Assembly: GCA_000004985.1 (NCBI GenBank)
Contig: GG738864.1
Source of the DNA: Naegleria gruberi
Lineage: Eukaryota
DNA length: 64,000 nucleotides
Reading direction: 5' to 3' (one strand)
Shown: positions 3,355 through 52,313 of the stretch, in pieces
How the letters are laid out: every line of letters begins with the position of its first letter
Numbering within the stretch: position 1 is the first letter of the stretch
Made by a program: the position numbers and the translations under genes
Notes under the pieces: model-generated
The model's database searches: none
What the model was told of the DNA's origin: nothing
What the model saw: only the letters and a program-made list of their open reading frames with translations

Positions 3355-4407
3355 ATGCAAAGATCACAACAACAGCAAACCATCAAACTCGCCAAAGCAA
3401 AACAAAAGAAAACAATTTCTTCCGAAAGATTGCCAACAGAAACATTTACATCCATTGTAAGAGATTGTTTAAAATTAAAACTTGATATTCGACCTTTACA
3501 ATTCAAGAAGAAATTTTCTAACGGAACAGACTTTCTTTATGATAAGGTAAAGAATTTGAAGGCAGTTTGTCGAGAAATCAATAGAGGAGATAATGTCATG
3601 ATGAAAATAATTTTCACATGTCAAGATTCTCAACCAATAATTCCAAATTATATACAAGGAGCAGAGAGTAATATTGAAAAGCATAAAATTTCGTACCCAG
3701 ATAAGATCATGTCAATAGACACTTTACGAATTGATATTGAATTTCCATACCATAATTCAATAACAGAGGTTGCTAAGAAGATTAATTTACATGAGGAAGA
3801 ACTGATCAATTCTCTTATAACTATTATTGATATGGATGATCATCAAGTTTATTTCAAAATGAAAACTAATTATTTCAATGAGGATAAGGAGCATTTGTAT
3901 AGATATATTGTAATTGGAAAAATGGATCAAAGTGAACATGCTTTCATCTTTGATGTGAGCGATTTTTCAAATATTTGTGGTACCAATGGTGCTATTCCAA
4001 AAAATCTCAAAAAGATTTATGATTTGTGCATGCCACAGGATTTAGCCCAATATTTTGAAAAGACTGGATGCAGCTCAACAAATTCAGATACAAGTGTTAG
4101 AAGAGTTGGATTTGGAATGTTCTTCAGATCAGATACCAGACCAAGCAGAGAGCGTTGCAGAAGACACTACTATTCGGGTTGGGAATCAGATGGTTCAGTT
4201 GCAACCTTAGTGAACTCGTATTCAAGGAATGGAGATTATGGTATTCAAATATTGGCACAGGGTGCAAGAAAATTCTATCCAACTGAGTATTCTGGTGAGA
4301 TTGATGTAGGATATTACAAATTTAAAATGGGATGGTGTAGATTCACTTCATTCCATTCAGCCCAGCACTACACTTGCAAATTAATCCAGGAAGTTAAAAA
4401 TTCATAA
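3355..4407 (+). CDS. Hypothetical protein (350 aa). The 5' end is uncertain.
   Basis: A long open frame in the local coding composition. I recognised no domain. An upstream exon cannot be excluded. Confidence 0.3.
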   Translation: MQRSQQQQTIKLAKAKQKKTISSERLPTETFTSIVRDCLKLKLDIRPLQFKKKFSNGTDFLYDKVKNLKAVCREINRGDNVMMKIIFTCQDSQPIIPNYIQGAESNIEKHKISYPDKIMSIDTLRIDIEFPYHNSITEVAKKINLHEEELINSLITIIDMDDHQVYFKMKTNYFNEDKEHLYRYIVIGKMDQSEHAFIFDVSDFSNICGTNGAIPKNLKKIYDLCMPQDLAQYFEKTGCSSTNSDTSVRRVGFGMFFRSDTRPSRERCRRHYYSGWESDGSVATLVNSYSRNGDYGIQILAQGARKFYPTEYSGEIDVGYYKFKMGWCRFTSFHSAQHYTCKLIQEVKNS

Positions 4408-4617
4408 ATATTGAATTGTATTCTGATATGCAGTTTCAACTTCGATATGATCAGAAAATTGGTAAGCAAAATTTTCATCATGTAGAACGTTCAATAAATA
4501 TAGAAGATTGAGCAACCGTTTCAAATTCTTCAACCAAACCTTACTGAACCAACAATCTAACGTTTCGGTCCAAGTGTATATTTTTATGTAAATACCAGAA
4601 ATTATAGACATAAATGA

Positions 4618-4691
4618 CTATGGCCATCATCCCGTCCGATTTGAGAAGTTAAATATTGTCGAGTACTGAGGTTGGAGACAACTTGGGAACC
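4618..4691 (+). pseudogene. Truncated 5S rRNA pseudogene, about 74 nt, with two internal deletions
   Basis: This segment aligns to the intact 5S copies at 50438-50555 and 35490-35607. It lacks the atcacgatgaatgcacctc and gccacatc segments and the 3' helix-I strand, and it has no T-run terminator. Confidence 0.55.
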
Positions 4692-4728
4692 TTTGCTAAT
4701 TGTAAAGTCAAAAAAAATACCCTCACTC

Positions 4729-10308: not shown

Positions 10309-10795
10309 GATTCTATCAACTTGGGATTAGAATTGAACAAATGTTTTAGATCCCCATATATTATAAAGAAACTGAAAACTTTACCACTGGTACAATCAAT
10401 TGACATATCTATTTAAATATTCTAATTGAATCATCTTGTTGATCTGTATATCAACAATTCTTAATGTCATAATCTGAAAGAAATATTTTCCCTCCTGTTC
10501 TATCAATTGCCATTCCATACAAAAATCTTTCAATTTTCCAAATACAATCAGCACTTGATCCTAATCTCATTAAATTCTTCACTCTATATTTGAAAGTATA
10601 CTTATTCTCTCCAAAATAAATAGCATCATTTTATTGATCATCAAAATTCTCTTCAATTAACAAACCAGGCACTCCTCCTTCGACAAGAAAGGCTCCTAAA
10701 TATTCATGAGTAATCAAATCAAAAAATTTCACTTCAGAATTTGAAACATCAGAGATGCACAAACAATTGTGTGAGAAATATTGGCATGGTTCTTT

Positions 10796-13700
10796 TCAAT
10801 AGTCAAATAAATCATTCAAAGTTTCAAGTATTGACATGATTGGTGGTCGTTTCTCTTCCTCAGCTTTCCAACACTCCTGAATTAATCCACATAGACTGTA
10901 TACTTTGCTAGCTTCCAATGAATCAAAAGTTTGTGGATTATTTCTCTTACACCACTGAAAACATTCTTCCTTAGAATGGAAAGGGATGAGAGGTCTGAGA
11001 TTATCTTGACAAATCTTACTGGTGAGGAAGGGAGTACTTGGGAATTTTCTTTCCTTATCAAGATTTAATCGTTGTAAAGTTCTTGGTTCAGTGTAAGTGT
11101 AGGCATCTTGACATTCGAATAATAATTGCCACATGATAATGCCAAATGCATAAACATCACATGATTTGGCATCTTGAATAGTTCCATTAATCAATTGAGG
11201 GCTCATGAAATTATGTGTACCAATCAAGTGTGTCATTATTGAATTATTCTTATCTGACATTTTGCGTGACAATCCAAAATCACATAATTTACAAATTCCA
11301 TCTTTGGTTAATAAAACATTTCCTGGTTTGAGATCTCTGTGGACAATTGGAGTTGGTAAAGTGTGTAAATACTCAATACCTCTTGCAATACCTAAAAACA
11401 TTTGAATTTTACGATCAAATGTCATTATGACAGTTCCCTTTTCTAACTCATGAATTACATCAACTAGAGATTTGTCCAATCGTTCCATTACTATAAATCC
11501 CTTGTTAGGCATTATTGAAACTCCATAGAAAGATGTAATATTAGGATGTCTCAATTTGACCAGTATTTTGACCTCATTGATAAATTCCTGATCTTGAATG
11601 TCAGAATCCATTTCGAATACTTTTACAGCAACACTAATTCCTTTCCACATACTTTCTATAACCATTCCTTGTCCTCCTTTTCCAAGTCTCTTTCTATTTC
11701 TCAAGTCCAAATCACCAATAGGAATGATAAAATCATTTTGTGGACTAGATTCTGGATCTTGCAGCTCTATTGGTTTGTAATCATCACCAAATAACAATTG
11801 CTTTGATAGAGAATCTGCATCTCCAATAATTTTCTTCTGTTTTCCATATTTTCTGCACAGGAATACCAATAAAGACACCAATAATATCAAAAGTGCTAAA
11901 AAGACAATACTCAAAACGATTGGAACAATTGCTGAAATAACGGAATCATTCTTTTCACAATAATCTCCAGAAGATCCACTTAAACATTTGCAATCATCCA
12001 CGGAATTACACATTCCACGACCACTACATACGTTTGGATCATTCTGTGCTAAGCCATAACACATGGTAAATTGGCATTGGTTTCCTGTATATCTATTCTT
12101 ACTGCATGTACACTTATCAATATCGGTGCAATTTCCTCGACTTTTGGCACCTCCACACGCATCCGGGTTGACCTTTCCATAGCAGGTTGCAGTTTCACAA
12201 TTACTTCCCAAATATTGATCACTATTGCATTTGCAAGAGTTGGATGATTGGCATGTTCCTCTTCCATTACACACGTCCTTATTTGCATTGGTCAATCCAA
12301 AACACACAGGTATATCACATTCCTTTCCAGTAAATCCAGATTGACATTCACATTGATTATATCCTATGCATTTTCCTTTTCCACAAGCATCCCCCTCTGT
12401 TTTTCCATAACAAACAGGCAAACACAATGTGAAATTATCATTCAAAATGTAGCCATTAATTTCACAGTGTGGTGTCAATGTATAAATTGCTGTTCGAGTG
12501 CAATAAATGATTGAGCCAGTAAGTGGGTCGAATTCAATATCTAAGGCATTCTCATTCAGATTTGAAATAGTTTCCACTTCTCTTTCTGATTTGATTAAAC
12601 TAATTTTCCTTCCATATTTGTGAAGGACAATTATTTTGTTATCTAAATTGAATACAGGTGAAAATGGACCCTCCAATCCTGATTCAGCAATTGTTGTAAT
12701 TATTCCATTCTTATTAATTCTTCTAATTCTGTCATTTAACATGTCGCAAAATACTAGATCTCCGAAATCATTAATCAATAGTCCAGTAGGTTTGTTGAGA
12801 GAGGATTTCGTTGCTTGGATGTAGTTCGATCCTCTACCAACATCTCCGTCTCCTGCAAGAGTTGTCAGCATGCCATTTCTGTCAAGTTTTCTAATATTTG
12901 AAAATAAGTCATCTGTGAAATAAACAACATTGAAACTATCCACAACAACAGAATATGGATAAGCAATGCTCAATCTTTCAGTAATATTATCTCTTCCGTA
13001 TCCACCTAAAAATCATTTGATTAGAATCTTTGAGATTCTATGAAAATTTCAACATACCAGAAATGAATGTAATTTCTTTAGTTCTAATTGAATCTTCACC
13101 AGTCATGTTCAATCCTAAAACTCGGTGATTTCTCGAATCTAGAAAATAAAGCATGTCGCCATCCACAAATAAACCTTTAGGGCTGTTCAATTTAATCTTT
13201 GCTGGACTAGTGTCTCTGTTAAATCCAGAAACTCCAACTCCAATTGCTGTTGAAATAAAATGTGAATTCACATTAATTAGTCTAATACGATTATTGAAAG
13301 TATCTGAAACGAAAATTAATTCATTTCCATCGTGATCTGTATAATATTCAGCAAATGTTGGATAGAGAAAGCTGATAAAATTATTAGAAAGACTATGAAA
13401 GAAGCACATGTACTCACCTTGCACTCAGGGAGGAGCCACCATCACCTCCATAACCATCGCTTCTTCCTGCTATTGTTTGAGTATTGGAATTGGCATTGCC
13501 ATTTTGTAAAATTATCTTTCTAATTCTATGATTTGCTAATATAATTAGAATAGTTTGGAAAATTTGAAAACTTACCAGAATCTACAATATACAAATGGGT
13601 AATCTTCTCTGGTTTTTCAACACATAATAAACCATACGGTTGATTGAATGCTGATGCAAGAGGAGCCCCATCAATATATCCTTGATATCCAACACCTGCT

Positions 13701-29022: not shown

Positions 29023-29840
29023 ATTTTTTCTTCTTGTTCAACAAGTCTAATGAATGTTTGGTCAGTGCTAATAATTGGTTTTGCCTTTTCCAAGATTGGA
29101 GAATATATATGGAAATACTGTATTTTCCTTTACTGATCCTCTATTTTATATACAGGTAAAGATTATTATTAAGCAAAGAAATGTTCATAATATTGAATCA
29201 TTTTCAATACAACCCTTCAACTCTGTTTTGTCTGATTCTTTATTCACTATTACTACTCACTATATCACAATGAAATATAATGACGATGCATAACATTTCT
29301 AAGGAAAGTTTAAAAAATTTAGGAAACAAAGTGGCTTCACTTCTTCTCATCATTGTTGCTACCCTCATCAAACCTCAAAAGAGAGGAGGAATATTTCATG
29401 ATGAATAGAGGTACTCTAAGAGAATTAAGCTCTGAAACATTTATCAACTCACAAATGTCATCTCTTTAGTAAAACTTAAATTCGGAGCACAACAATTAAT
29501 CATAATAAATTAATACTCGGAGAAGATACACCAACAACAGATGAACTTAATTAACACTAGTGGAAGTTGGATGTAAACATTAGTATTACGCTAATTTCCT
29601 ATTCAACAATGGGACAATAATTGTGTGTTCCTTTAAGCATTCCTTCTTTTGAAATGTACACTGTCGAAAGTTGATCAAGTATTATCCTCCTACTTGTTGT
29701 AAAGACACAGTTCCTTAAATGAATTTAAGAGAATTTCCTCCTGTGACTCCAAATGGAGTTGACTTAAGTGGCAAATGAAGCAACCTTTCACACAACTTGC
29801 TCACTCCATCGTAAATCAAAGTTTTTCTTCAACTTGGAAC

Positions 29841-30800
29841 ATGTCAAAAATTACGAAAAAAAATGCAAGACGATTGTCTCTCATTAATCACAATCCTTCC
29901 CTACAGCTGAACGATGCCTTGTTCGAAAAATTTAAAATTCATATGAGAAGTTATCGGAATTGTGTGCCATTTTCAATGAAGTTTGAAGAGATGAATAATA
30001 TCAAGTCGATCGAACATAAATTGCACTGTCCCTCCCAAGCCAAGATTTCTCACTCACACAATTGTTTGTGCATCTCTGATAATTTAGATTCTGAACTGAA
30101 ATTTTTTGATTTGATTACTCATGAATATTTAGGAGGCTTTCTTGTTGAAGGAGTGACTGGTTTGTTAATTGAAGAGAATTTTGATGATCAACAAAATGAT
30201 GCTATTTATTTTGGAAAGAATAAGTATACTTTCAAATATAGAGTGAAGGATTTAATGAGATTAGGATCAAGTGCTGATTGTATTTGGAAAATTGAAAGAA
30301 ATCATATGTATGGAATGGCAATTAGAACAATTGGAAATCAGAAACAATTATTCAGATATAGTGCTTCCCAAGGAGTTATGGATATTATAGATACTGTGAA
30401 TGGAAAGGTCATTAAAGAGTTGAAACTTGAAAAACTCGACAGAGTAATGGATATTATTTTCATCAATCCAAAAAGAATGCTTGTTGCTGAACTTTTTCAT
30501 AATGCATGTTTTATTTATGATGAAATGAACGAAAATGAATGGAAATTGATACAAACAATTGAAAAAGCAGAGAATATTTATTTTAGTCAACCATTAGGAT
30601 TGGCAATTGACAGAACAGGAGGGAAAATATTTCTTTCAGATTATGACATTAAGAGAATTGTTGTATTTAATGAGAGTTTAGATTTGATTGATTGTCATTA
30701 TCCAGAATCTCTGAATCCATTTCGTCTCGATTTTGATGAAACAACAGGATTACTCTATATTACTGATCAACAAGATGATTCCATTAGAATATTTAAATAG
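29841..30800 (+). CDS. NHL-repeat (six-bladed beta-propeller) protein with an N-terminal Cys/His-rich segment
   Basis: The first ATG is at 29841 (MSKITKKNARR). The ORF-track start at 29775 is not an ATG. The C-terminal half carries NHL-like blades (IYFSQPLGLAIDRTGGKIFLSDYDIKRIVVF ... LLYITDQQDDSIRIF). The upstream HKLHCPSQAKISHSHNCLCISD segment looks like a B-box-like zinc knuckle. Confidence 0.5.
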   Translation: MSKITKKNARRLSLINHNPSLQLNDALFEKFKIHMRSYRNCVPFSMKFEEMNNIKSIEHKLHCPSQAKISHSHNCLCISDNLDSELKFFDLITHEYLGGFLVEGVTGLLIEENFDDQQNDAIYFGKNKYTFKYRVKDLMRLGSSADCIWKIERNHMYGMAIRTIGNQKQLFRYSASQGVMDIIDTVNGKVIKELKLEKLDRVMDIIFINPKRMLVAELFHNACFIYDEMNENEWKLIQTIEKAENIYFSQPLGLAIDRTGGKIFLSDYDIKRIVVFNESLDLIDCHYPESLNPFRLDFDETTGLLYITDQQDDSIRIFK

Positions 30801-30875
30801 ATATGTCAATTTATTGTACCACTGGTAAAGTATCCACAGTTCCTTAAATGAAATTAAGAGAAGATTGAAATTTTA

Positions 30876-34751: not shown

Positions 34752-35489
34752 GATTGTTGTGAGGTTTTTTTTCTTTGAAAGGTTCTCTGACTATGTTATT
34801 CGAATCATTTATGGTGATGAATTGGTACGAAACGTTCATTTAGCTATTTGATGGTTGAGTAGAGTTAGTCTTTTGGGTTTGAATCAGCAATGAATACTAT
34901 TGGATTGTTTGTTTTACAAAAAATGGGTGTTTCACTTGAACCTAATTGACTTCTATTTATGGAAACAAATTGTGTTCAAAATGCAAACCTTGACTGAATC
35001 AGAAAAGATGCAACTGCGTGTCTGTTTGAAATAATTTGGACAATTCAGCATAAAATACTATAACAGATCATACAACCTTACAATACTGCTAATTCGGTAT
35101 TTTAACGTGGTCAACTTGCACATTTTGCATTCTTGAAATTTACACTTGACATTTCGTAGAGTAACACTTCAATCAAAGAGTTGATAAGATGATAGATTAC
35201 ATTGTTACTTGTTAAAATATTTATGTTCTGAATATAGCTCTCAAGCCTCACTACACATTTTCTTCTCGTTGTATAAATTTTTATCTCTTTTATTGTACCC
35301 AAACTACATGTATTTGGAATGCTTATTTGATAGTTAATATTTTAGCAAGAGTTTATTTGCAACAAGTCATCTAATTGGATTAAATGAAAAGTGTGGACTA
35401 ACTTACTTATATCAATATTGACCATTGGATGACTAATATTTTATGCAATATACATTGTATTTGGTATTTGTTGCGGAGAAAAATCAAAA

Positions 35490-35607
35490 GACTACAGCAC
35501 CACAGGTTCCCAAGTTGTCTCCAACCTCAGTACTGATGTGGCTCGACGATACTTAACTTCTCAAATCGGACGGGATGAGGTGCATGAATCGTGATATGGC
35601 CGTAGCC
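35490..35607 (-). rRNA. 5S rRNA gene (118 nt)
   Basis: This is the reverse complement of the 50438-50555 copy. Helix I pairs ggctacggc with gctgtagtc. An oligo-T tract (ttttgattttt) follows the 3' end on the coding strand. The sequence matches canonical eukaryotic 5S, including GCCATA...CCCGTCCGATTTGAGAAGTTAAGC...GTACTGAGGTTGGAGACAACTTGGGAAC. Confidence 0.85.
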
Positions 35608-35799: not shown

Positions 35800-36169
35800 T
35801 TAACCACCCCTCAATCTCAAAACTAAATGCACAGTTGCATCCTTTTGAAGATTGTAATCACCAATAGTTCTTCCATCTTCCAATTGCTTACCGGCATAAA
35901 TCAATCGTTGTTGATCTGAAGGAATACCTTCCTTATCAAATATCTTTTGTTTCATATTCTTCAACAGTATCATTCGATTCCATTTCAATAGTGATTGTCT
36001 TTCCAGTTAAGGTTTTTACAAAAAGTTGCATTCCTCCTCTTAATCTTTGTTGATCTGGTGAAATTCCTTCCTTATCTTGTACTTTTCTTTTCACATTTTC
36101 AATTGAATCATTAGATTCAACCTCCAAAGTGATAGTTCTTCCAGTGAGTGTCTTGACAAATAATTGCAT
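35800..36169 (-). pseudogene. Degenerate polyubiquitin locus: two head-to-tail ubiquitin units, one internally deleted and one frameshifted
   Basis: Unit 1 reads [43 protein letters not shown] and then runs directly into RGG. Ub residues 43-73 are missing in frame. Unit 2 reads [26 protein letters not shown] single extra A in gaagaatatg then shifts the frame, so the remainder ([50 protein letters not shown]-stop) is only readable in the +1 frame. The locus also carries many substitutions relative to invariant ubiquitin. Confidence 0.55.
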
Positions 36170-36661
36170 TATGTTTGTTGTCTTGTTTTTCTTATTGTTT
36201 TTCTTGAATTCAAAACATATCCTTGCTTTTTATACTAAGTTTTGAGATGTATGTATTTTTAGAAGTAGTTCTTCTGCAAAGAAATTCTTTAAATGAACCG
36301 ATCGATTTTGTTTCTGGACACAAATTTGGTTCATGTTTTGTAATTATGTGCTATAGCTGTTCATACAATAATCAATTTTAACTTGTTGTTCGAATGAGTT
36401 TAATGCAATTTGACTCTTAATGATTTTGAATTTAAAAGGTGATTATTGGAAAAATACTAGCAAAATGGTTTGAGTTTAGCTGTTCATTACTAAAAACAAT
36501 GTTAACTTTTATGAAAAGATATTATATTAATATACCGTAGCCATTTATCCTTAATATAATGAATAATAATAAATTTGTTGAAAAATATCTTATTAATTTT
36601 ATTTTTATAAAAATAAAGGAATATAAGTAAAGATATTGTTGTTTGTCTTTCAATTGTTAAT

Positions 36662-36735
36662 TTAGACGGGAAGCCTGCCAGGAATATGGCGACCATCCCG
36701 CTACAGTCTTTGACTGAATGAACAGTGAAGGCAAG
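36662..36735 (+). repeat. Conserved 74-nt element X, copy 1. Candidate small ncRNA gene or SINE/MITE-like repeat core.
   Basis: The core is gacgggaagcctgccaggaatatggcgaccatcccgctacagtctttgactgaatgaacagtgaaggcaa. It matches the reverse complement of 50851-50925 with 4 mismatches in 74 nt. Weaker similarity extends about 40 nt into both flanks, including tttcaattRttaattt immediately upstream. A TATA-like tataaaaataaagg lies about 50 bp upstream. Confidence 0.45.
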
Positions 36736-38238
36736 AGTTCTGGACGAATCTTGTTGTGTTCAAATAACAGGTTGTTGAAGAATTTGATAAGGTTGACCAA
36801 CCTTCTATTTATTGAAAACCGACAAGTTAAAATTGCTTGATGCAAGTTTTGGTTTGATTTTTTCTGAATCAATTCTAAATTGAAACTTCATCTATTTCAA
36901 ACAAATTATTTTATTTACAATTTACTGAATTATTTACAAGTTAATTTACATCTTTTTCGATTTGGTAATCTTATTTGTGGTGGTTGATTGTTTAGCTCTC
37001 TTTTCAATTGAATTTTTCGAAGATCTTTTCACTGAAATTTGTTTACCATTTAAATTTGCGTGATGATAATCAATATTATGACGTCAATCTTTTAGATAAA
37101 TCAACTAGTTTAGATCTTGTTAGCTGGCATTTTGTTTTGTTGTAGATATATCATCATCCGATACCAGTTGATCTATTTATTTCCATGAAGATTTCCACTA
37201 ATTTTGTGATTCCGATTTTAGTGGATTTTCCACTCATCACAAGAAGTTTGAATTTTTCTATTAATATTTTGATGAAGGAAATTTAATGAAAATCAACAAA
37301 CAAAAGAAAATAACAACAATTAGAAAATGGTCTCAACAAGAAGAAATATGTATAATTCCTCCAATAACACTTCACAATTTAATTCCGAAATTTCTCTGGA
37401 TAACATTGTTGGTGGTACAAGAAGAAGAAATTTAATTGATTACAAAACATTGAATTCTATTGGAAGTGAATCAAGTAAAACTTCCAAATCTCAATCACAT
37501 AATACTTTAGAAATGAGAAACAAACAATTCAAACTGTGGTGAACTCCATTTAACTCAAAATTTTGTAAACCTAGGCAATCATTGTAAATAAACCCAAATG
37601 TAAATATTCAATAATGCACACAGTTGAGTTTTTTGACCCATTTTCTACGTTGAACTTCTGTTCAGTACACGTCCAACATAACTTTCAATGTTAATTATGT
37701 CAATGGTGTGTTTGCTCCATGTTCAACTATCTCAAAGAATTCAAATCATAAAAAAACAAACAACGACCATAATTCACTTTTCAAAAACCATGCATCTAGA
37801 AAGGTAAAAAAGGTTTGTTCGATTCATACTCTTTGCTTTCTTCATACTTACCTTGAAGGACATTTCAGTGATCATGCAGACTGAAATGTGAATCTGGAAA
37901 CTCTCCTCCTTGCACTCAGAGGATGAGAAGCCAGAATTTGGTCAATAATCAAAGTGGTTGTTGCCCTCCTTCTCAATTTTTTCCTGTGAGGATTCATCTG
38001 GTATGATTTCTCGCTCTGTTAAATAATAGAAATTTTGTGTGTGGGAATTTTGCTGCACCGAAGAATCTATTACCCTATAATTGTATCAAATTCCAAAAGC
38101 TCAAGATTTTCTAAATCAAATTGCAGCCATTCATTATCTTAAATTGTGAAACATGAATCAGTTCACCCTTGTTTCCCTCTCAATCTTATTAAAATATGAA
38201 ATATCAATGGTACAAGATTATTAAACCATAATATCCTC

Positions 38239-38320
38239 GTGCGGAGCGTGCAACATCAATTTATCCCAAGTCCGCTAAATGGCATATCAAAGCGTGCGCG
38301 GAAATTTGCTCTTCCAATCA
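38239..38320 (+). promoter_or_regulatory. GC-rich island with a duplicated AGCGTGC motif, 90-170 bp upstream of the NmrA-like gene
   Basis: The sequence is cctcgtgcggAGCGTGCaacatcaatttatcccaagtccgctaaatggcatatcaaAGCGTGCgcggaaatttgc. It stands out in an otherwise roughly 70% AT intergenic region. Confidence 0.2.
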
Positions 38321-38412: not shown

Positions 38413-39231
38413 ATGTCTGCCACTACCACTGTTTCATCTTACTATTCATCTGTTTTTGTTGCTGGAGCCACCGGAGTTACTGGAATGCATGTTGCTAAGG
38501 CGCTCCTTAATCATCAATCTGCAAAACAAGTTTCAATTTTGGTTAGAGAGGGAAGTGAGGAGAAGGCAACTGAATTGGTCAATTCTGGAGCAAAGGTTGT
38601 TAAGGGAGATGTTTTGAATATGAGCGAGGAAGAGTTGACCAAAGCTTTGGAATCTGTTGAGGTTGTTGTCAGTGTTATTCAAGGGCATGATGATAAAACA
38701 ATGTTTGATGGTCAATTGAAATTGTTGAATGCTGCCAAGAAGGCTGGAGTTAAAAAATTCCTTCCATCTAGCTTTGGTTTCAATTACAATTTAGTCAACT
38801 ATGGAGATTCATTGTTTATGGATACCAAGAAGAAGTTTGTAGTGGAATTGGAAAAGAGTGGGTTGGAATATGTTCAATTACATGTTGGTGCCTTTGCTCA
38901 TTATGCTTCTTCTCCATCATTTGTAATGAAGTATGATAAGGATTCGAATACTGTTTCTTTATCTGGTGATTTTGATGTGAAATTTGGTATTACTACTTCA
39001 CAAGATATTGGAAAGTTTGCTGCAGAAGCTGCTTTGAGAAGAGACATTACCAAACACAATGTCACTGTCAGAGATGATTATTTGAGCGTTAGAGAAATTG
39101 CTCAATTAGTTTATGGATCTGATGTTAAACTTAATTTGGTGCAAACAACTGAGGAGTTGAAGAAGAGCATTAATGAAAGATCAACAGCTCTTGACAAATA
39201 CTCCACAAGATTGGATGAGAATTGCTTTTGA
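38413..39231 (+). CDS. NmrA-like / isoflavone-reductase-like NAD(P)-binding protein (272 aa)
   Basis: ATG at 38413 and a single ORF to TGA 39231. The N-terminal Rossmann motif is VFVAGATGVTGMHVAKALL. The architecture is typical of the NmrA/PCBER short-chain reductase family. Confidence 0.7.
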   Translation: MSATTTVSSYYSSVFVAGATGVTGMHVAKALLNHQSAKQVSILVREGSEEKATELVNSGAKVVKGDVLNMSEEELTKALESVEVVVSVIQGHDDKTMFDGQLKLLNAAKKAGVKKFLPSSFGFNYNLVNYGDSLFMDTKKKFVVELEKSGLEYVQLHVGAFAHYASSPSFVMKYDKDSNTVSLSGDFDVKFGITTSQDIGKFAAEAALRRDITKHNVTVRDDYLSVREIAQLVYGSDVKLNLVQTTEELKKSINERSTALDKYSTRLDENCF

Positions 39232-40727: not shown

Positions 40728-43541
40728 TTAAATCTTCTTATTCATCATTGCTGAAAGGCAAGACCAAATTGAGAGAGGTCTACAATATCCAAGGGCTCTA
40801 TATTCTCCCGTTTCTGTTACTGCCTCAGGAGTTTGGAACCAGAATGCCGAATTGGAGGACCAACATTTATCAAAAACACTCTTCATCAAATCTATTCCTT
40901 CTTCTCGTCTGCCAAGCAAGATTGTTAAAGCAGCTACGACATACGATGTTCCTGTCCACATCTCTCTAGACTGCAAGCTTGTCTTATCAACCTCTTGTGT
41001 TGGTCTCATACCATTAACACATCCTCCAAGTTTTGTAATCTGTTGATATTTTACAAAGTTATTCTCCAGTATTTTGTTAAGTGATTTGGAAACCCTTTCC
41101 ATGTTGAATGGAATCAAGTAGTGTGAATCCTCACATCTTCCACTATTTTTCACATAATTTCCAATAAGCAATAACATGAATGTGCCGTGTAAATGGTCTG
41201 ACATGATAGAGTCATGTTGTGGCTCAGTACTTGCATCATAGTGATAGTATTGATTAGTTTCATCCCATAATTTACTCTCGAATGTTTTCAGGCCACTTTC
41301 TATCAATGGTTCTACCTTTTGTCTGGTATTTTCATCGTCCAGTTCTTTGGCCATTTCTAAAATAGCTTTCAAAGATGCAATCCATAACATCCCAGAGTAT
41401 GCAGAAACACCTGTTACTTTCCAGGCGTCGTATGTCGTATCTGGGAATGATTCATTTTCAATCAATCCATCACCATCCTTATCGAAATTGGTCAAGCTGT
41501 AGTTGAGAGCAAGAATTATAGAGGGGAATGCTTCTTCCAGAAATTCTCTATTCTTTGTAATCATAAAATCTCTGAAAATAGTTAAAATAAATTGACTATT
41601 AAGATCTTTCCATTTGTTGACATCTTGGAAGTTATAGGCATTAACTAGTTTCCATGGTCTTTCGTATGGAGTACCGACATCATGTGGAACACTTCCCTTG
41701 ACCTTTCTCCTATTTTTCATGTTTGATAGATAAAAGGTAACCTCTTGATTGTTTTCCTCTCTGACAGCTCTAATGATATCTCGTTGAATAGAAAGCTGTA
41801 TTTCTGGCCAATTCATAATCATGGCATGAGAGGCATAGAAATGTACATCATATGTGTTACACATTAAATATTCATGTCCTTCCAAATAGAAAAAGTAGTC
41901 CTTTGAGTCTTGACTATTACCATTTTCATCCAGTTCTCCACCATTGGTCCATAAGGTTCCTCCATCAACAATATAGTATAACTCATTGAATAGAGCCGCA
42001 ACAGCTGTTGGATGGTCCTTCCCGACTTGGTCAATTACACCTTGGTGCCATTGTGAGATTTCATCTTTCCATTGTTTAGATGAATCCAAACTTCTCTTGC
42101 ACATTTCAAAGCATGCAGTATCCTTGTGTTGTGTGATGGAAGAAATGGCATCAGTACAGAACTGGGTATAATGTCTAAGATATCTGAATTCCATTGTTGG
42201 ACCAAACCTAACAAATGGCGCATTCCAATTCAAATTGAAACAAACTTGTTTGGAACTATTCGAAGGAATTTGTACTTTGCTACAAATTGCGTGACAAGAC
42301 AAATGTTTTGATTGGCTCTTAGTCCAATCGTGCCTTTTAGCAAAATTTTCACAAAACTCTGTTGAAAATTCTCCATTATTGTTAAATTCTTGCCACAAAT
42401 CATGTAAATGGGATTCATTCGTTCCATTAAATTCATCCAAAAATGTTATTGATCCCAAAGATGTGTTGGCTCCAATACAAAACTGTATTGTATCCTTATG
42501 TGAAAACGAATCTGTTACTGTAGTTTCTATTGTCAAACACTTTACCGAGTCAGTTTCGTTTCTAGCTATTATTGATTGTTCATTCTTTTTTCTAAACTTT
42601 TCTTCACTTTGAATTGTAAATAATAATGAAACATTTGCTTCCTCGTCTGTGTTATTGATAATAGTCCATTCAAAATTACATGTTGGAAAACTTGATTCTT
42701 GATAATTGTGAGCCCACACAGGTGAATATCTTTCGCATATTACTGTGAATTTTTCATCGCTTGTCTGATAGACAGTCCACGACTTTGGAAATAGAGAATA
42801 CACCTGTTGTGAAAATTGCATCTTGTTTTTTCTTCTTCTTTCATCATTAATAAACATCCAATTATGTTTCAACTTTTTAATTAAATCCTTATCCATAGTT
42901 CCATCTTTAAATTCACATATTGGATTCAACACAAACGACTCAATCTCACCATTTCTTTCCACTCTCAAACTGAACTGATTGACTGGCAAGACTGTATCCG
43001 AATAAATTCCACCTGTCTGATTAAAAATCAAATGGCTCCTCGTAAACCATCCATTCATTCCCAAAGTAAACATTCCTGCTCCAATTCCACCAATTGGTGG
43101 TCCCTTTCTTCTTGGATCAACAACTGCTCTTCTCATAATAAAATCAAACGGTGTTTCCCTCTTCTTAATAAGCTTCTCTGGAACATAGGACATGGTCAGG
43201 AATCTCAAAGCACCCGGAAGGAAGTGAAACATTTCTCCAATTGAATAGGTTTGTGCTCGGAGAGGAATTGTTGTTTTCTGCAGGGACGGAAATAAATGTT
43301 GTGATTTATCCATAATTTCCAAATGCCAACAATAGGACTGCATCGGAAGAATGATGCTAGATAGAGTTTCGGATTGGTCGGATGCTGCTGAAGATATTAA
43401 ATTATTTCCTGTTATTTGTATTGTTGCTTGATTTTCATCTTGTTCTTCTTCCTCGTCAATAAAAACGAGTTGATCCTGTTGTTGATTCTGTGATAGAGAA
43501 GATTCAGTGTCAAACTCCTCACTCCTTGGTTGTGCAAGCAT
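40728..43541 (-). CDS. GBA2: Non-lysosomal glucosylceramidase (GBA2, GH116 family), about 938 aa
   Basis: The first ATG is at 43541 (MLAQPRSEEF). The ORF-track start at 43586 is a TTG. The gene is a single exon to TAA 40728. Conserved GBA2 blocks are present: PIGGIGAGMFTLGMNGWF in the N-terminal beta-sandwich, and HDVGTPYERPW ... FPDTTYDAWKVTGVSAYSGMLWIASL in the C-terminal (alpha/alpha)6 catalytic domain. Confidence 0.8.
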   Translation of the reverse strand: MLAQPRSEEFDTESSLSQNQQQDQLVFIDEEEEQDENQATIQITGNNLISSAASDQSETLSSIILPMQSYCWHLEIMDKSQHLFPSLQKTTIPLRAQTYSIGEMFHFLPGALRFLTMSYVPEKLIKKRETPFDFIMRRAVVDPRRKGPPIGGIGAGMFTLGMNGWFTRSHLIFNQTGGIYSDTVLPVNQFSLRVERNGEIESFVLNPICEFKDGTMDKDLIKKLKHNWMFINDERRRKNKMQFSQQVYSLFPKSWTVYQTSDEKFTVICERYSPVWAHNYQESSFPTCNFEWTIINNTDEEANVSLLFTIQSEEKFRKKNEQSIIARNETDSVKCLTIETTVTDSFSHKDTIQFCIGANTSLGSITFLDEFNGTNESHLHDLWQEFNNNGEFSTEFCENFAKRHDWTKSQSKHLSCHAICSKVQIPSNSSKQVCFNLNWNAPFVRFGPTMEFRYLRHYTQFCTDAISSITQHKDTACFEMCKRSLDSSKQWKDEISQWHQGVIDQVGKDHPTAVAALFNELYYIVDGGTLWTNGGELDENGNSQDSKDYFFYLEGHEYLMCNTYDVHFYASHAMIMNWPEIQLSIQRDIIRAVREENNQEVTFYLSNMKNRRKVKGSVPHDVGTPYERPWKLVNAYNFQDVNKWKDLNSQFILTIFRDFMITKNREFLEEAFPSIILALNYSLTNFDKDGDGLIENESFPDTTYDAWKVTGVSAYSGMLWIASLKAILEMAKELDDENTRQKVEPLIESGLKTFESKLWDETNQYYHYDASTEPQHDSIMSDHLHGTFMLLLIGNYVKNSGRCEDSHYLIPFNMERVSKSLNKILENNFVKYQQITKLGGCVNGMRPTQEVDKTSLQSREMWTGTSYVVAALTILLGRREEGIDLMKSVFDKCWSSNSAFWFQTPEAVTETGEYRALGYCRPLSIWSCLSAMMNKKI

Positions 43542-43768
43542 TTTTTTTTGTAATGCTTTTTGTCTGTTTTTGTAAGATTCGCACAATTAAAGATTTTCGC
43601 TGGTGATGAGCACTTTATTGGACACAAAGCTTAGAGGATATAAAAGTTAAAATATATAAATGATAATCCTAAGTCATTTAAAATGGACCATTGTAAAGAC
43701 AAGAAACATTAAAACAATTGCTTTCACTGTACCTCTTTATTAAGGAAAATTAAGTAACCTTAAATGTA

Positions 43769-50437: not shown

Positions 50438-50555
50438 GGCTACGGCCATATCACGATGAATGCACCTCATCCCGTCCGATTTGAGAAGTTAAGCATCGTC
50501 GAGCCACATCAGTACTGAGGTTGGAGACAACTTGGGAACCTGTGGTGCTGTAGTC
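50438..50555 (+). rRNA. 5S rRNA gene (118 nt)
   Basis: The sequence runs ggctacggccatatcacgatgaatgcacctcatcccgtccgatttgagaagttaagcatcgtcgagccacatcagtactgaggttggagacaacttgggaacctgtggtgctgtagtc and is followed by a TTTTT Pol III terminator. Helix I is fully paired, including two G-U pairs. Confidence 0.9.
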
Positions 50556-50850
50556 TTTTTATCTGTTAGAGCATGATTCTTCTGGAATATGAAGAACAAT
50601 ATTAAAACATTGACTTGATATTTATCCTTATTATCTCTTCCTTTGTGAAAAATCATTTCTTGACTTACTGTCTAAAGATTTTGTTAATCGTAAACTATTT
50701 CAATGTTTGAAGACTCAAATTCGAAATTTTATCGTTTATTGATCAACCACAAGTTTCTCTTTCTAAATAGATTAAAATAAAAGGTGATAAATAGATGGTC
50801 AGGTAGCAAGCGTTTCTAAATAATAATTACTGAACCAACAATCAATAGAT

Positions 50851-50925
50851 TAGTTGCCTTCACTGTTCATACAGTCAAAGACTGTAGCGGGACTGTCGCT
50901 ATATTCCTGGCAGGCTTCCCGTCCA
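50851..50925 (-). repeat. Conserved 74-nt element X, copy 2, inverted relative to copy 1 and about 300 bp downstream of the 5S gene
   Basis: Reverse-complementing 50851-50925 gives gacgggaagcctgccaggaatatagcgacagtcccgctacagtctttgactgtatgaacagtgaaggcaa. The flanks show the same weak similarity seen around copy 1. The ttactgaaccaacaatc segment beside it recurs at 4541-4557, next to the 5S pseudogene. Confidence 0.45.
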
Positions 50926-51091
50926 AAATTAATAATTGAAATGGTAATGTGACAATAACAACCACCAAGATAACACACTTTCTGGTTAATCATGGATTGT
51001 CTGTTTATGCTTATTTCTTAAAATAAGTGAAACAAGTAAATATATCAATAATATGAACATTTATCTTTCCATTAACCTTTTCTTCCACTTG

Positions 51092-52313
51092 TATTGTAGT
51101 TTTCCAGAAACCATGACATAAATTTTTCAACACCAATCATTTTTCCATCCATGTTGATCGATTAAAATCCATCTAATCAATCTATTTTTTGATCAATCTA
51201 TCAAACAATCGATCATGATTCATTAACAATTTCAATCAGCTAATTATCAAAAGATTGTTGTTTGATTTCTTGTGATGTTTCAAAATAAAGCACTTCAAAA
51301 CACAAAAAGTTGTTTTTCCAAATTGCTTAAAGTCATGTGCCAAGCCAATCCTCCGATGTGGCATTTGAAAATAAATATGAATTTCTTATAATCCTTTCAG
51401 AGCTCAATGACTGAAAGTTGCCTCAACACTTTTCCAAGAATATGCCAAGTGCTCACTCTTGATTTTTGAAATTTGGGATATGGATATTGAAATATTACAT
51501 AAATGTTTGAGTAAATATTGAACTCCCCAAAGTCAGAGTGTTGGTTCTTGATTAAATAATTGCTTACACAAGTTTGGACGTTGTTGCTCCTGAACATGTG
51601 GTTTTGTTCAAAGAACACCTTATCAAGTTTGCTTTCATTCTCGCCCTTTATCATTAATTAAGGCACTCAATAATTCAAATCTTTTTTCAAGTGTTGTATT
51701 TTATCATGTCAAGTACTTGGGAAACTCGTTTGATGTAGTGGAAGATCCACTAGTAATTCAGTAAGTAACAAATCTATCTAATTTGTAACCCAGCATTTCT
51801 GAAAATGTCGAATTCATTGTAAAGAAATTAAACCACATTCAAACTTAATGAATTGTTCCTGATGTCATCCAGCTTGATATGGAATTAAGTAATACCAATA
51901 AGGTGATTTTCAAGGCACTCTATACTGACATCCAACCAAGGGTTGGTTCAAAATGAAAAAGGAGCAATTTGGAGAAGATTTTTCGAACCTTTGTGAAACA
52001 ATTCAAATAAGGGAGAAGGAAATCTGTGTCTCTAAAAAAATAATTGAAAAAACCAAAAAAAAGGCAAGAAGAAAATCAAACCTGAACTGGAAGAACAAAA
52101 GAAATCATCAAAATCAAAGTCTCAAGCTCAGTTCAATGAGGATTTTGAGATATAATGAAGAACATTGATAGATCGATCGATTGATCGATCAATTAATTGA
52201 TAAAATTCTATGTTTCATCCATTCAATCGATCATTTTCCATCTCGATCAATCATCGATCGGTAAAAAAATTCCATCGAACAATTTATGTCATGGTTTCTC
52301 GAAAACTACAATA
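51092..52313. mobile_element. Non-autonomous DNA-transposon-like element (about 1.22 kb) with 37-bp terminal inverted repeats, subterminal ATCGAT/TGATCA motif clusters and possible TA target-site duplication
   Basis: The left TIR is tattgtagttttccagaaaccatgacataaatttttc at 51092-51128. The right TIR is gaacaatttatgtcatggtttctcgaaaactacaata at 52278-52313, which is its reverse complement with 2 mismatches in 37. If the ends are set at ttgtag...ctacaa, both flanks are TA. Subterminal regions 51150-51240 and 52160-52290 are dense in the palindromes ATCGAT and TGATCA (gatcgatcgattgatcgatcaattaattga). The only internal ORF is 71 aa and Lys-rich, so no transposase is encoded. Confidence 0.5.

Follow-up and report, generated by a model that had tools for sequence, protein, structure and literature searches.

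Small-RNA genes can be physically linked to 5S rRNA genes. SL RNA-5S repeats occur in Euglenozoa and nematodes, and snRNA-5S linkage is present in some animals. Euglenozoa are the sister lineage of Heterolobosea. Among the free-living Discoba, a key representative is Naegleria, the genus that includes the brain-eating N. fowleri. The minimal U1 snRNA of trypanosomatids measures about 75 nt and has a single stem-loop. Small RNAs of the SRP Alu-domain kind give rise to SINEs. To our knowledge, the non-coding RNA repertoire of Naegleria is almost uncharted. The N. gruberi genome contains 279 putative 5S genes and no TFIIIA (PMC3369914), and its U1 RNA was not among the two RNAs that were rescued by an unfiltered Infernal search in a 2008 screen (PMC2396436).

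We examined a window of 64,000 nucleotides of N. gruberi nuclear DNA (assembly GCA_000004985.1, contig GG738864.1), which is gene-dense and has a G+C content of 33%. It contains two copies of a short conserved block, here called X. We consider it fairly probable that these belong to a small, multi-copy, 5S-linked gene family specifying a previously undescribed structured non-coding RNA of the Naegleria lineage, one whose sequence by itself points to no function. X would then be an RNA family that is supported by covariation, is recognized by no Rfam model and lies beside 5S genes in two organisms. The coordinates, strand, fold and invariant single-stranded segments are given below, so that probes and knock-downs can be designed directly.

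Conservation of X and its 5S-rich surroundings

X is strongly and locally conserved in the window. Self-blastn aligned positions 50854-50941 with 36734-36648 in inverted orientation (92% over 88 nt, E 2e-28) and, 5S genes aside, revealed no other strongly conserved short intergenic repeat. Copy 1 (36648-36735, minus strand) and copy 2 (50854-50941, plus strand) thereby form an inverted pair of 88-nt blocks that are 91-92% identical, with 81 of 89 aligned positions the same. The 74-nt shared core described in the initial annotation is real, inverted and carries four mismatches, but the conserved block is actually 88 nt long; for copy 2 its extent was established by self-blastn, the core mismatch count and a flank identity test. 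The same annotation described similarity fading over about 40 nt on each side. Identity is 0.91 within the block, whereas the two loci beyond it are 0.48-0.55 identical, compared with 0.50-0.54 for shuffled partners. Because flanking identity equals the shuffled level, such a gradual decay is unsupported.

When all non-ORF 70-nt windows were ranked by G+C content, copy 1 came 4th and copy 2 came 6th. The top eight consisted of three tRNAs, copy 1, 5S gene 2, copy 2, an island at 38232-38301 and 5S gene 1. Since X ranks among tRNA and 5S genes, it has the composition of a structured-RNA gene in an AT-rich genome. The island at 38232-38301 (G+C 0.51, ranked 7th) is unexplained; it lies about 110 nt upstream of an NmrA-like ORF (38413-39231), adjoins a 5S remnant, and gave noise alone in an Rfam search at E<=10.

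Rfam at gathering thresholds found two 5S genes and three tRNAs in the window and nothing else. Each 5S gene shares the strand of its neighboring X copy: 5S gene 1 (35489-35607, minus strand, RF00001 98.6 bits) lies 1.05 kb downstream of copy 1, and 5S gene 2 (50438-50556, plus strand, 105.4 bits) lies 305 nt upstream of copy 2. The distances given originally, about 1.05 kb and about 0.3 kb, are therefore right. With placement restricted to non-ORF space, the linkage of X to intact 5S genes in the window has a p value of about 0.02-0.03. The bodies of the two 5S genes are 97.5% identical, and their flanks are unrelated past about 15 nt.

Directly upstream of copy 1 on its sense strand lies an AT-rich region, D (36740-36960, minus strand), which is paralogous to 4350-4573 on the plus strand (blastn 67% over 199 nt, E 6e-16; overall identity 65-67%; also found by nhmmer). 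The paralogue includes the final 57 nt of ORF 3355-4407, and a 5S pseudogene comes after it. The first 60 nt or so of D are recognizable beside copy 2 as well, including a 17-mer whose recurrence had been noticed earlier: positions 50827-50843 and 4541-4557 match exactly, as reported, and belong to the larger D homology. Because D precedes X at the first locus, X at the second and a 5S pseudogene at the third, these are three paralogous loci. The D pair suggests that DNA around 5S-type genes was duplicated segmentally or recombined long ago. D was also considered as a part of the RNA and rejected, as it has no conserved structure (RNAalifold about 0 kcal/mol).

Several further remnants and repeats accompany these genes. 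The 5S pseudogene (4620-4695) has internal deletions, is 81-82% identical to the intact genes and ends in an A8 run. A solo 5S upstream remnant occurs at 38125-38217 on the minus strand, with the 5S body absent after ATGGCTGCAA; it matches the 38 nt immediately upstream of 5S gene 2 at 38180-38217 (84% identity) and positions -20 to +8 of 5S gene 1 at 38125-38152 (89% identity). Between 5S gene 1 and copy 1 lies a degenerate di-ubiquitin sequence (35800-36169, minus strand), probably a pseudogene, with an internally truncated first unit and a second unit split by a frameshift. At 150 nt from copy 2, an inverted repeat (51092-51161 and 52243-52313; 82% over about 70 nt) flanks about 1.1 kb without a long ORF and may represent the ends of a MITE or other DNA transposon. 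Elsewhere in the window, inverted repeats with 90-94% identity (30035-30329 with 10496-10789, and 30597-30831 with 10378-10516) are located in or beside ORFs 29775-30800 (plus) and 10796-12973 (minus), suggesting recently duplicated paralogous segments. The 5S-rich neighborhoods of this genome hold other conserved small genes together with paralogous debris, which bears on the spread of the approximately 279 dispersed 5S copies.

Homologues, fold and strand of the proposed X RNA

Two reverse-strand frames are open through X. The reverse-strand translations of the two copies were aligned (A7), and the resulting profile was searched exhaustively against 1.84 billion predicted proteins. It matched two short ORFs, P0010 and P0012, carrying FTVHTTKGCSGL(I/F)(A/V)IFL.., with source contigs L005 (1.8 kb) and L006 (5.4 kb) from ENA metagenome ERZ27315067. 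A covariance model made from the two N. gruberi copies alone located X at 3350-3441 of L006 and at 1484-1577 of L005 (68-69 bits, E about 1e-15), and the refined model, R2, had exactly four matches in the DNA examined, i.e., the two N. gruberi copies, L005 and L006, at 92-95.5 bits. The cores of N. gruberi and of the second organism are 80-81% identical; the two N. gruberi cores agree at 91% and those of L005 and L006 at 88%, while the flanks of the latter two were 47-48% identical, which is the random level. L006 also carries an intact 5S gene (3691-3809, minus strand, 99 bits) at 262 nt from its X homologue, and the two are convergent. Because this 5S gene is 87-90% identical to the N. gruberi 5S genes, the organism represented by L005 and L006 is a relative of Naegleria. 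At 4075-5136 of L006, a putative Rho/Ras-like small GTPase was noted by eye across two ORFs, probably split by an intron, which would fit a Naegleria-like eukaryote.

Other collections yielded no additional copies. R2 had no match in 18 kb of N. lovaniensis. The GH116 ORF of the window (40728-43586, minus strand) is 99% identical to a protein cluster that includes XP_002677983.1 and has its best named relative in N. lovaniensis, where the region surrounding the orthologue shows no synteny and contains no X. Blastn of X against plasmids and phages and exact scans with three patterns in genome and viral contig collections gave no match, and an exact 20-mer scan of metagenomes gave two chance matches in bacterial coding DNA. 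A six-frame X peptide query of 5.8 billion predicted proteins by word-indexed search found no further copies, and a full-text literature search for the X sequence found no paper.

The four core sequences (two from N. gruberi, L005 and L006) were aligned (A9) and scored for covariation with a structure of two hairpins. This structure has 21 pairs, and 95.2% of the cells are standard-paired, as compared with 29-43% when the partners are slid by 1-3 columns. Both sides change in 4 of the 21 pairs (7 cells), namely 14-22 (GC/AU), 15-21 (UA/CG), 35-55 (GC/UA/AU) and 39-50 (CG/UA), corresponding to about five independent double substitutions. The covariation score of A9 was reached by 1 in 500 shuffles, a statistic resting on four sequences, two organisms with shared ancestry and about five events. 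Structure is thus kept across species through compensatory substitutions, as generally expected of a structured RNA.

L005 and L006 differ from each other by two fully compensated pairs (35-55, UA/AU; 39-50, UA/CG), which argues that selection for the fold still acts on individual X copies. Given longer sequences, RNAalifold returned the same two hairpins unaided. Each of the four sequences, folded singly, had the two-hairpin structure as its minimum free energy fold, with ensemble frequencies of 0.32-0.61 and z-scores from -3.15 to -4.41 (copy 1, -3.26; copy 2, -3.58). A terminal closing stem suggested by the two N. gruberi copies was rejected, being unsupported in L005 and L006 and not predicted by RNAalifold. 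The original proposal of an undescribed small RNA gene under constraint is therefore strengthened, since the homologues from the second organism keep the two-hairpin fold by compensatory changes.

The strand chosen initially did not hold. When the structure is mirrored onto that strand, 83.3% of the cells are paired instead of 95.2%, and for hairpin B the value is 76.8% instead of 94.6%. Pairing is weaker there because G.U pairs (27-62, 36-54, 38-51 and 40-49), which occur on the sense strand only, turn into A.C mismatches. By this pairing model, the sense strand of copy 1 is minus and that of copy 2 is plus.

The cross-species core covers 68 nt in copy 1 (36660-36727, minus strand; R2 95.5 bits, E 4e-26; alignment A9) and 69 nt in copy 2 (50861-50929, plus strand; R2 92 bits, E 4e-25). 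It starts with the decamer CACYGUUCAU, which is invariant and unpaired. In copy 1 the order is a 5' single strand CACUGUUCAU, hairpin A, hairpin B and a 3' CUAAAU. Hairpin A has the consensus UACA(GU/AC)C-AAA-G(AC/GU)UGUA with an AAA loop; it is found at 36702-36718 (minus strand) in copy 1 as U(U)CAGUC-AAA-GACUGUA. Its inner two pairs, GU/AC in copy 1, become AC/GU in L005 and L006, i.e., pairs 14-22 and 15-21 change on both sides in two of the four sequences.

Hairpin B directly abuts hairpin A and consists of 14 bp with a small internal loop and a middle part that is variable but compensated. In copy 1 (36666-36701, minus strand) it reads GCGGGA-U-GGUCGCCA-UAUUCC-UGGC-A-GGCU-UCCCGU, with compensated pairs 35-55 and 39-50. 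Its invariant parts are the GCGGG/CCCGU base and the apex AUAUUCCUG, which comprises the 6-nt loop UAUUCC and flanking stem bases. In copy 2, hairpins A (50870-50886) and B (50887-50922), both on the plus strand, are indicated by the A9 covariation and by single-sequence folding. A short tail, CCAAAU, follows hairpin B. The copy 1 block extends beyond the core by about 8 nt on the 5' side (UUGCCUU) and about 12 nt on the 3' side (UUAACAAUUGAAA). Because within-species conservation runs about 20 nt past the core, to AAU(U/A)GAAA, the mature RNA is probably 70-90 nt long.

Neither tRNA-type nor 5S-type internal promoter boxes were found in X. The earlier statement that the core has no A and B boxes is correct, and ARAGORN was negative on X. 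A TATA-like box reported about 50 bp upstream of copy 1 sits on the 3' side when the structure-supported strand is used. A candidate external promoter element is CAACAAG at 36750-36756 (minus strand), 23-29 nt upstream of the copy 1 core, and its counterpart at copy 2 is CAACAAT at 50836-50842 (plus strand), 19-25 nt upstream of the core and inside the 17-mer shared with 4541-4557. CAACAA occurs at -29 and -25 of the two N. gruberi copies, at -27 of the L006 homologue and at -32 of 5S gene 1; no CAACAA(G/T) box was found upstream of X in L005 or of the three tRNA genes in the window. The box is a candidate only, as the motif was picked post hoc. The 5S upstream regions differ, with CAACAAG at about -32 in 5S gene 1 and TTGATATTTCATATTTTAATA in 5S gene 2, and multiple alignment was uninformative as to upstream homology shared by X and 5S genes. 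No oligo-T terminator lies directly after the conserved block or is consistent among the copies. Three copies have T4-5 runs at 33-47 nt downstream, but these are uninformative given the AT-richness of the DNA. On the sense strand, three of the four 3' flanks are rich in A (A = 0.47-0.51).

The following mode of action is suggested by these features. Transcription of the RNA would run from about 36735 to 36648 for copy 1 (minus strand) and from about 50854 to 50941 for copy 2 (plus strand), possibly driven by an external promoter of its own with the CAACAAG box some 25-30 bp upstream, in the arrangement seen at 5S gene 1. The unpaired decamer and the apex of hairpin B may form contact surfaces for a target RNA or protein. 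The RNA probably acts through these two invariant segments as a guide or as a scaffold in a small RNP.

Alternative explanations for X

X might instead be a short non-autonomous SINE-like retroposon or other dispersed repeat, with a fold needed for mobilization and a tendency to land near Pol III genes such as 5S. This is the main rival; we regard it as unlikely, though it accounts for several observations. The copies are dispersed with unrelated flanks, the ends of X are sharp, copies are more alike within a species than between species, and the A-rich sense-strand 3' flank in three copies is as found in retroposons. The 5S debris nearby (the pseudogene at 4620-4695 and the solo remnant at 38125-38217) and the 279 putative 5S copies of N. 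gruberi (PMC3369914) also suit such an element. However, X has no detectable head derived from tRNA, 7SL or 5S (ARAGORN and Rfam negative; 5S alignment z about 1.2), and it lacks A and B boxes. By reading, no TIRs and no true poly(A) are present in the X sequences, and there is no target-site duplication at the ends of the 88-nt block in the N. gruberi copies. That a six-frame query of 5.8 billion predicted proteins found no more copies is a weak argument against a high copy number. The SINE/MITE alternative is weakened because the copies from one organism, L005 and L006, have diverged at two pairs with full compensation, which is unexpected of dead copies. The inverted X copies were also considered as the TIRs of a 14-kb transposon; this was rejected, since the interior holds ordinary host genes and no target-site duplication is present.

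It is very unlikely that X descends from a 5S gene or from the spacer of a 5S repeat unit, as a diverged relic whose copies are kept alike by gene conversion and not by any function of X. On the sense strand X sits downstream of D, where the paralogous third locus has the 5S pseudogene, and at the expected offset an ungapped stretch of 39 nt is 72% identical to this pseudogene. A position-anchored, band-limited shuffle test gave p values of about 0.007 for copy 1 and 0.05-0.09 for copy 2, which is suggestive, and X is on the same strand as the neighboring 5S gene in both window loci. In contrast, when X was aligned freely with 5S and pseudogene sequences, locally or semi-globally, the scores stayed at chance level (local alignment z <=1.2 against 2000 dinucleotide shuffles), and RF00001 had no match at E<=10. 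The covarying hairpins differ from 5S helices, X and 5S are convergent in L006, and gene conversion alone does not explain 80% cross-organism conservation with compensatory changes. On sequence comparison, a 5S derivation of X is unproven.

We give little credence to X being related to 7SL/SRP RNA or to another known class, such as U1, SL RNA, snoRNA or tRNA. In favor of an SRP relationship, 16 of 17 bases match what we take to be a segment of human 7SL, albeit on the antisense strand, and the UGUAG between the hairpins recalls what is presumably the Alu-domain U-turn. This 7SL/SRP resemblance, raised in the initial annotation, has not stood up, and fails by the criterion set there: neither an SRP model nor any other Rfam model matched at E<=10, and the 7SL-like string is antisense and pairs differently. 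The Rfam result holds for every copy in windows of 126-141 nt, and cmscan in E-value mode on 126-600 nt around three copies gave no SRP family at E<=10. The Rfam hits around X at this threshold were noise (miRNA and snoRNA fragments), without any SRP, snRNA, snoRNA, ribozyme or 5S model. SRP RNA was further rejected because conservation of X ends after about 90 nt, leaving no S domain.

The remaining classes were rejected on the features that define them. As regards tRNA or a tRNA-derived SINE, the only tRNAs that ARAGORN and Rfam detect in the window are its three tRNA genes, and the pairs of X make two hairpins and no cloverleaf. In favor of a U1 identity, N. gruberi U1 did not turn up in the 2008 screen (PMC2396436). 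However, introns in the window start with GUAUGU or GUAAGU, and X offers only the 5 nt CAUAC for pairing, with mismatches at the exon-side positions; by inspection of alignments A9 and A11 both a U1-70K loop and an Sm site are missing, and RF00003 did not match. As regards SL RNA, an invariant GUAGCG is present, but by inspection no RAU(3-6)GR Sm site follows it in any copy, and no Rfam SL model matched. Conserved C and D boxes are missing on either strand (CUGA in copy 1 corresponds to CUGU in copy 2), arguing against a box C/D snoRNA. As for an H/ACA snoRNA, hairpin B is followed by AAAU(U/C)A, yet neither a second hairpin nor an ACA is conserved, and the internal loop measures only 1-3 nt. 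Neither hammerhead nor HDV-like ribozyme topologies fit X by eye.

For X as a short coding exon of the reverse strand (..AFTVHSVKDCSGMVAIFLAGFPSK..), the chance is close to negligible: a frame is open through all four copies, the same frame recovered P0010 and P0012 and one N. gruberi difference is synonymous in it, but these two ORFs are unrelated outside the 25-residue match, which is C-terminal in one and N-terminal in the other, and have no Pfam domain, the peptide is in no annotated Naegleria protein, neither splice sites nor a start codon are conserved (copy 2 has ACT in place of the ATG of copy 1), and nucleotide changes follow base pairs rather than codons. On the strand initially assigned, a TGA in copy 1 corresponds to TGT in copy 2, and no frame is convincingly coding.

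Comparison with described small RNAs and their genes

The preferred reading, a 5S-linked family of structured RNA genes, can be compared with four known systems. The N. gruberi 5S genes resemble X in being dispersed and multi-copy, with unrelated flanks, similar G+C content and physical linkage to X, and possibly in having a CAACAAG box about 30 bp upstream (5S gene 1). They differ in fold and show no significant sequence similarity to X, and X has no oligo-T directly after the conserved block. X also evolves about twice as fast, being 80% identical between the organisms, as compared with 87-90% for 5S.

The SRP Alu domain likewise has two adjacent hairpins joined at UGUAG. X differs from it by the absence of helix 2 and of helix 5 closing stems, as a terminal stem is not conserved, and its loops lack the G-G/C-C tertiary pair motif. 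With the minimal U1 of trypanosomatids, X shares its small size, the Discoba lineage, the escape from Rfam models and a conserved single-stranded 5' segment that is followed by stem-loops. Unlike that RNA, it is without the U1-70K loop motif and the Sm site and offers splice-site pairing over 5 nt only.

A more specific version of the preferred reading would make X a lineage-specific, abundant small nuclear or cytoplasmic RNP RNA of Heterolobosea, with genes that travel with 5S like the SL-RNA genes of Euglenozoa, possibly a reduced spliceosomal, SL-like or stand-alone Alu-domain-like RNA. We give this only a slim chance. If true, it would bear on the evolution of the RNA-processing machinery in Discoba, and a reduced spliceosomal, SL-like or SRP-related RNA would bear on RNA processing in the sister group of Euglenozoa.

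The location of the family near 5S genes may correspond to that of other small-RNA genes in other protists. The described 5S-linked genes differ from X in several respects: X has no fixed repeat unit or orientation, being in tandem with 5S in both window loci but in different orders and convergent in L006; it lacks the splice donor and Sm site of SL RNA; and it matches no snRNA model. Like such genes, X is short, multi-copy and structured, lies about 0.3-1 kb from 5S in two organisms, and forms a G+C-rich island in AT-rich DNA whose copies evolve in concert within a species.
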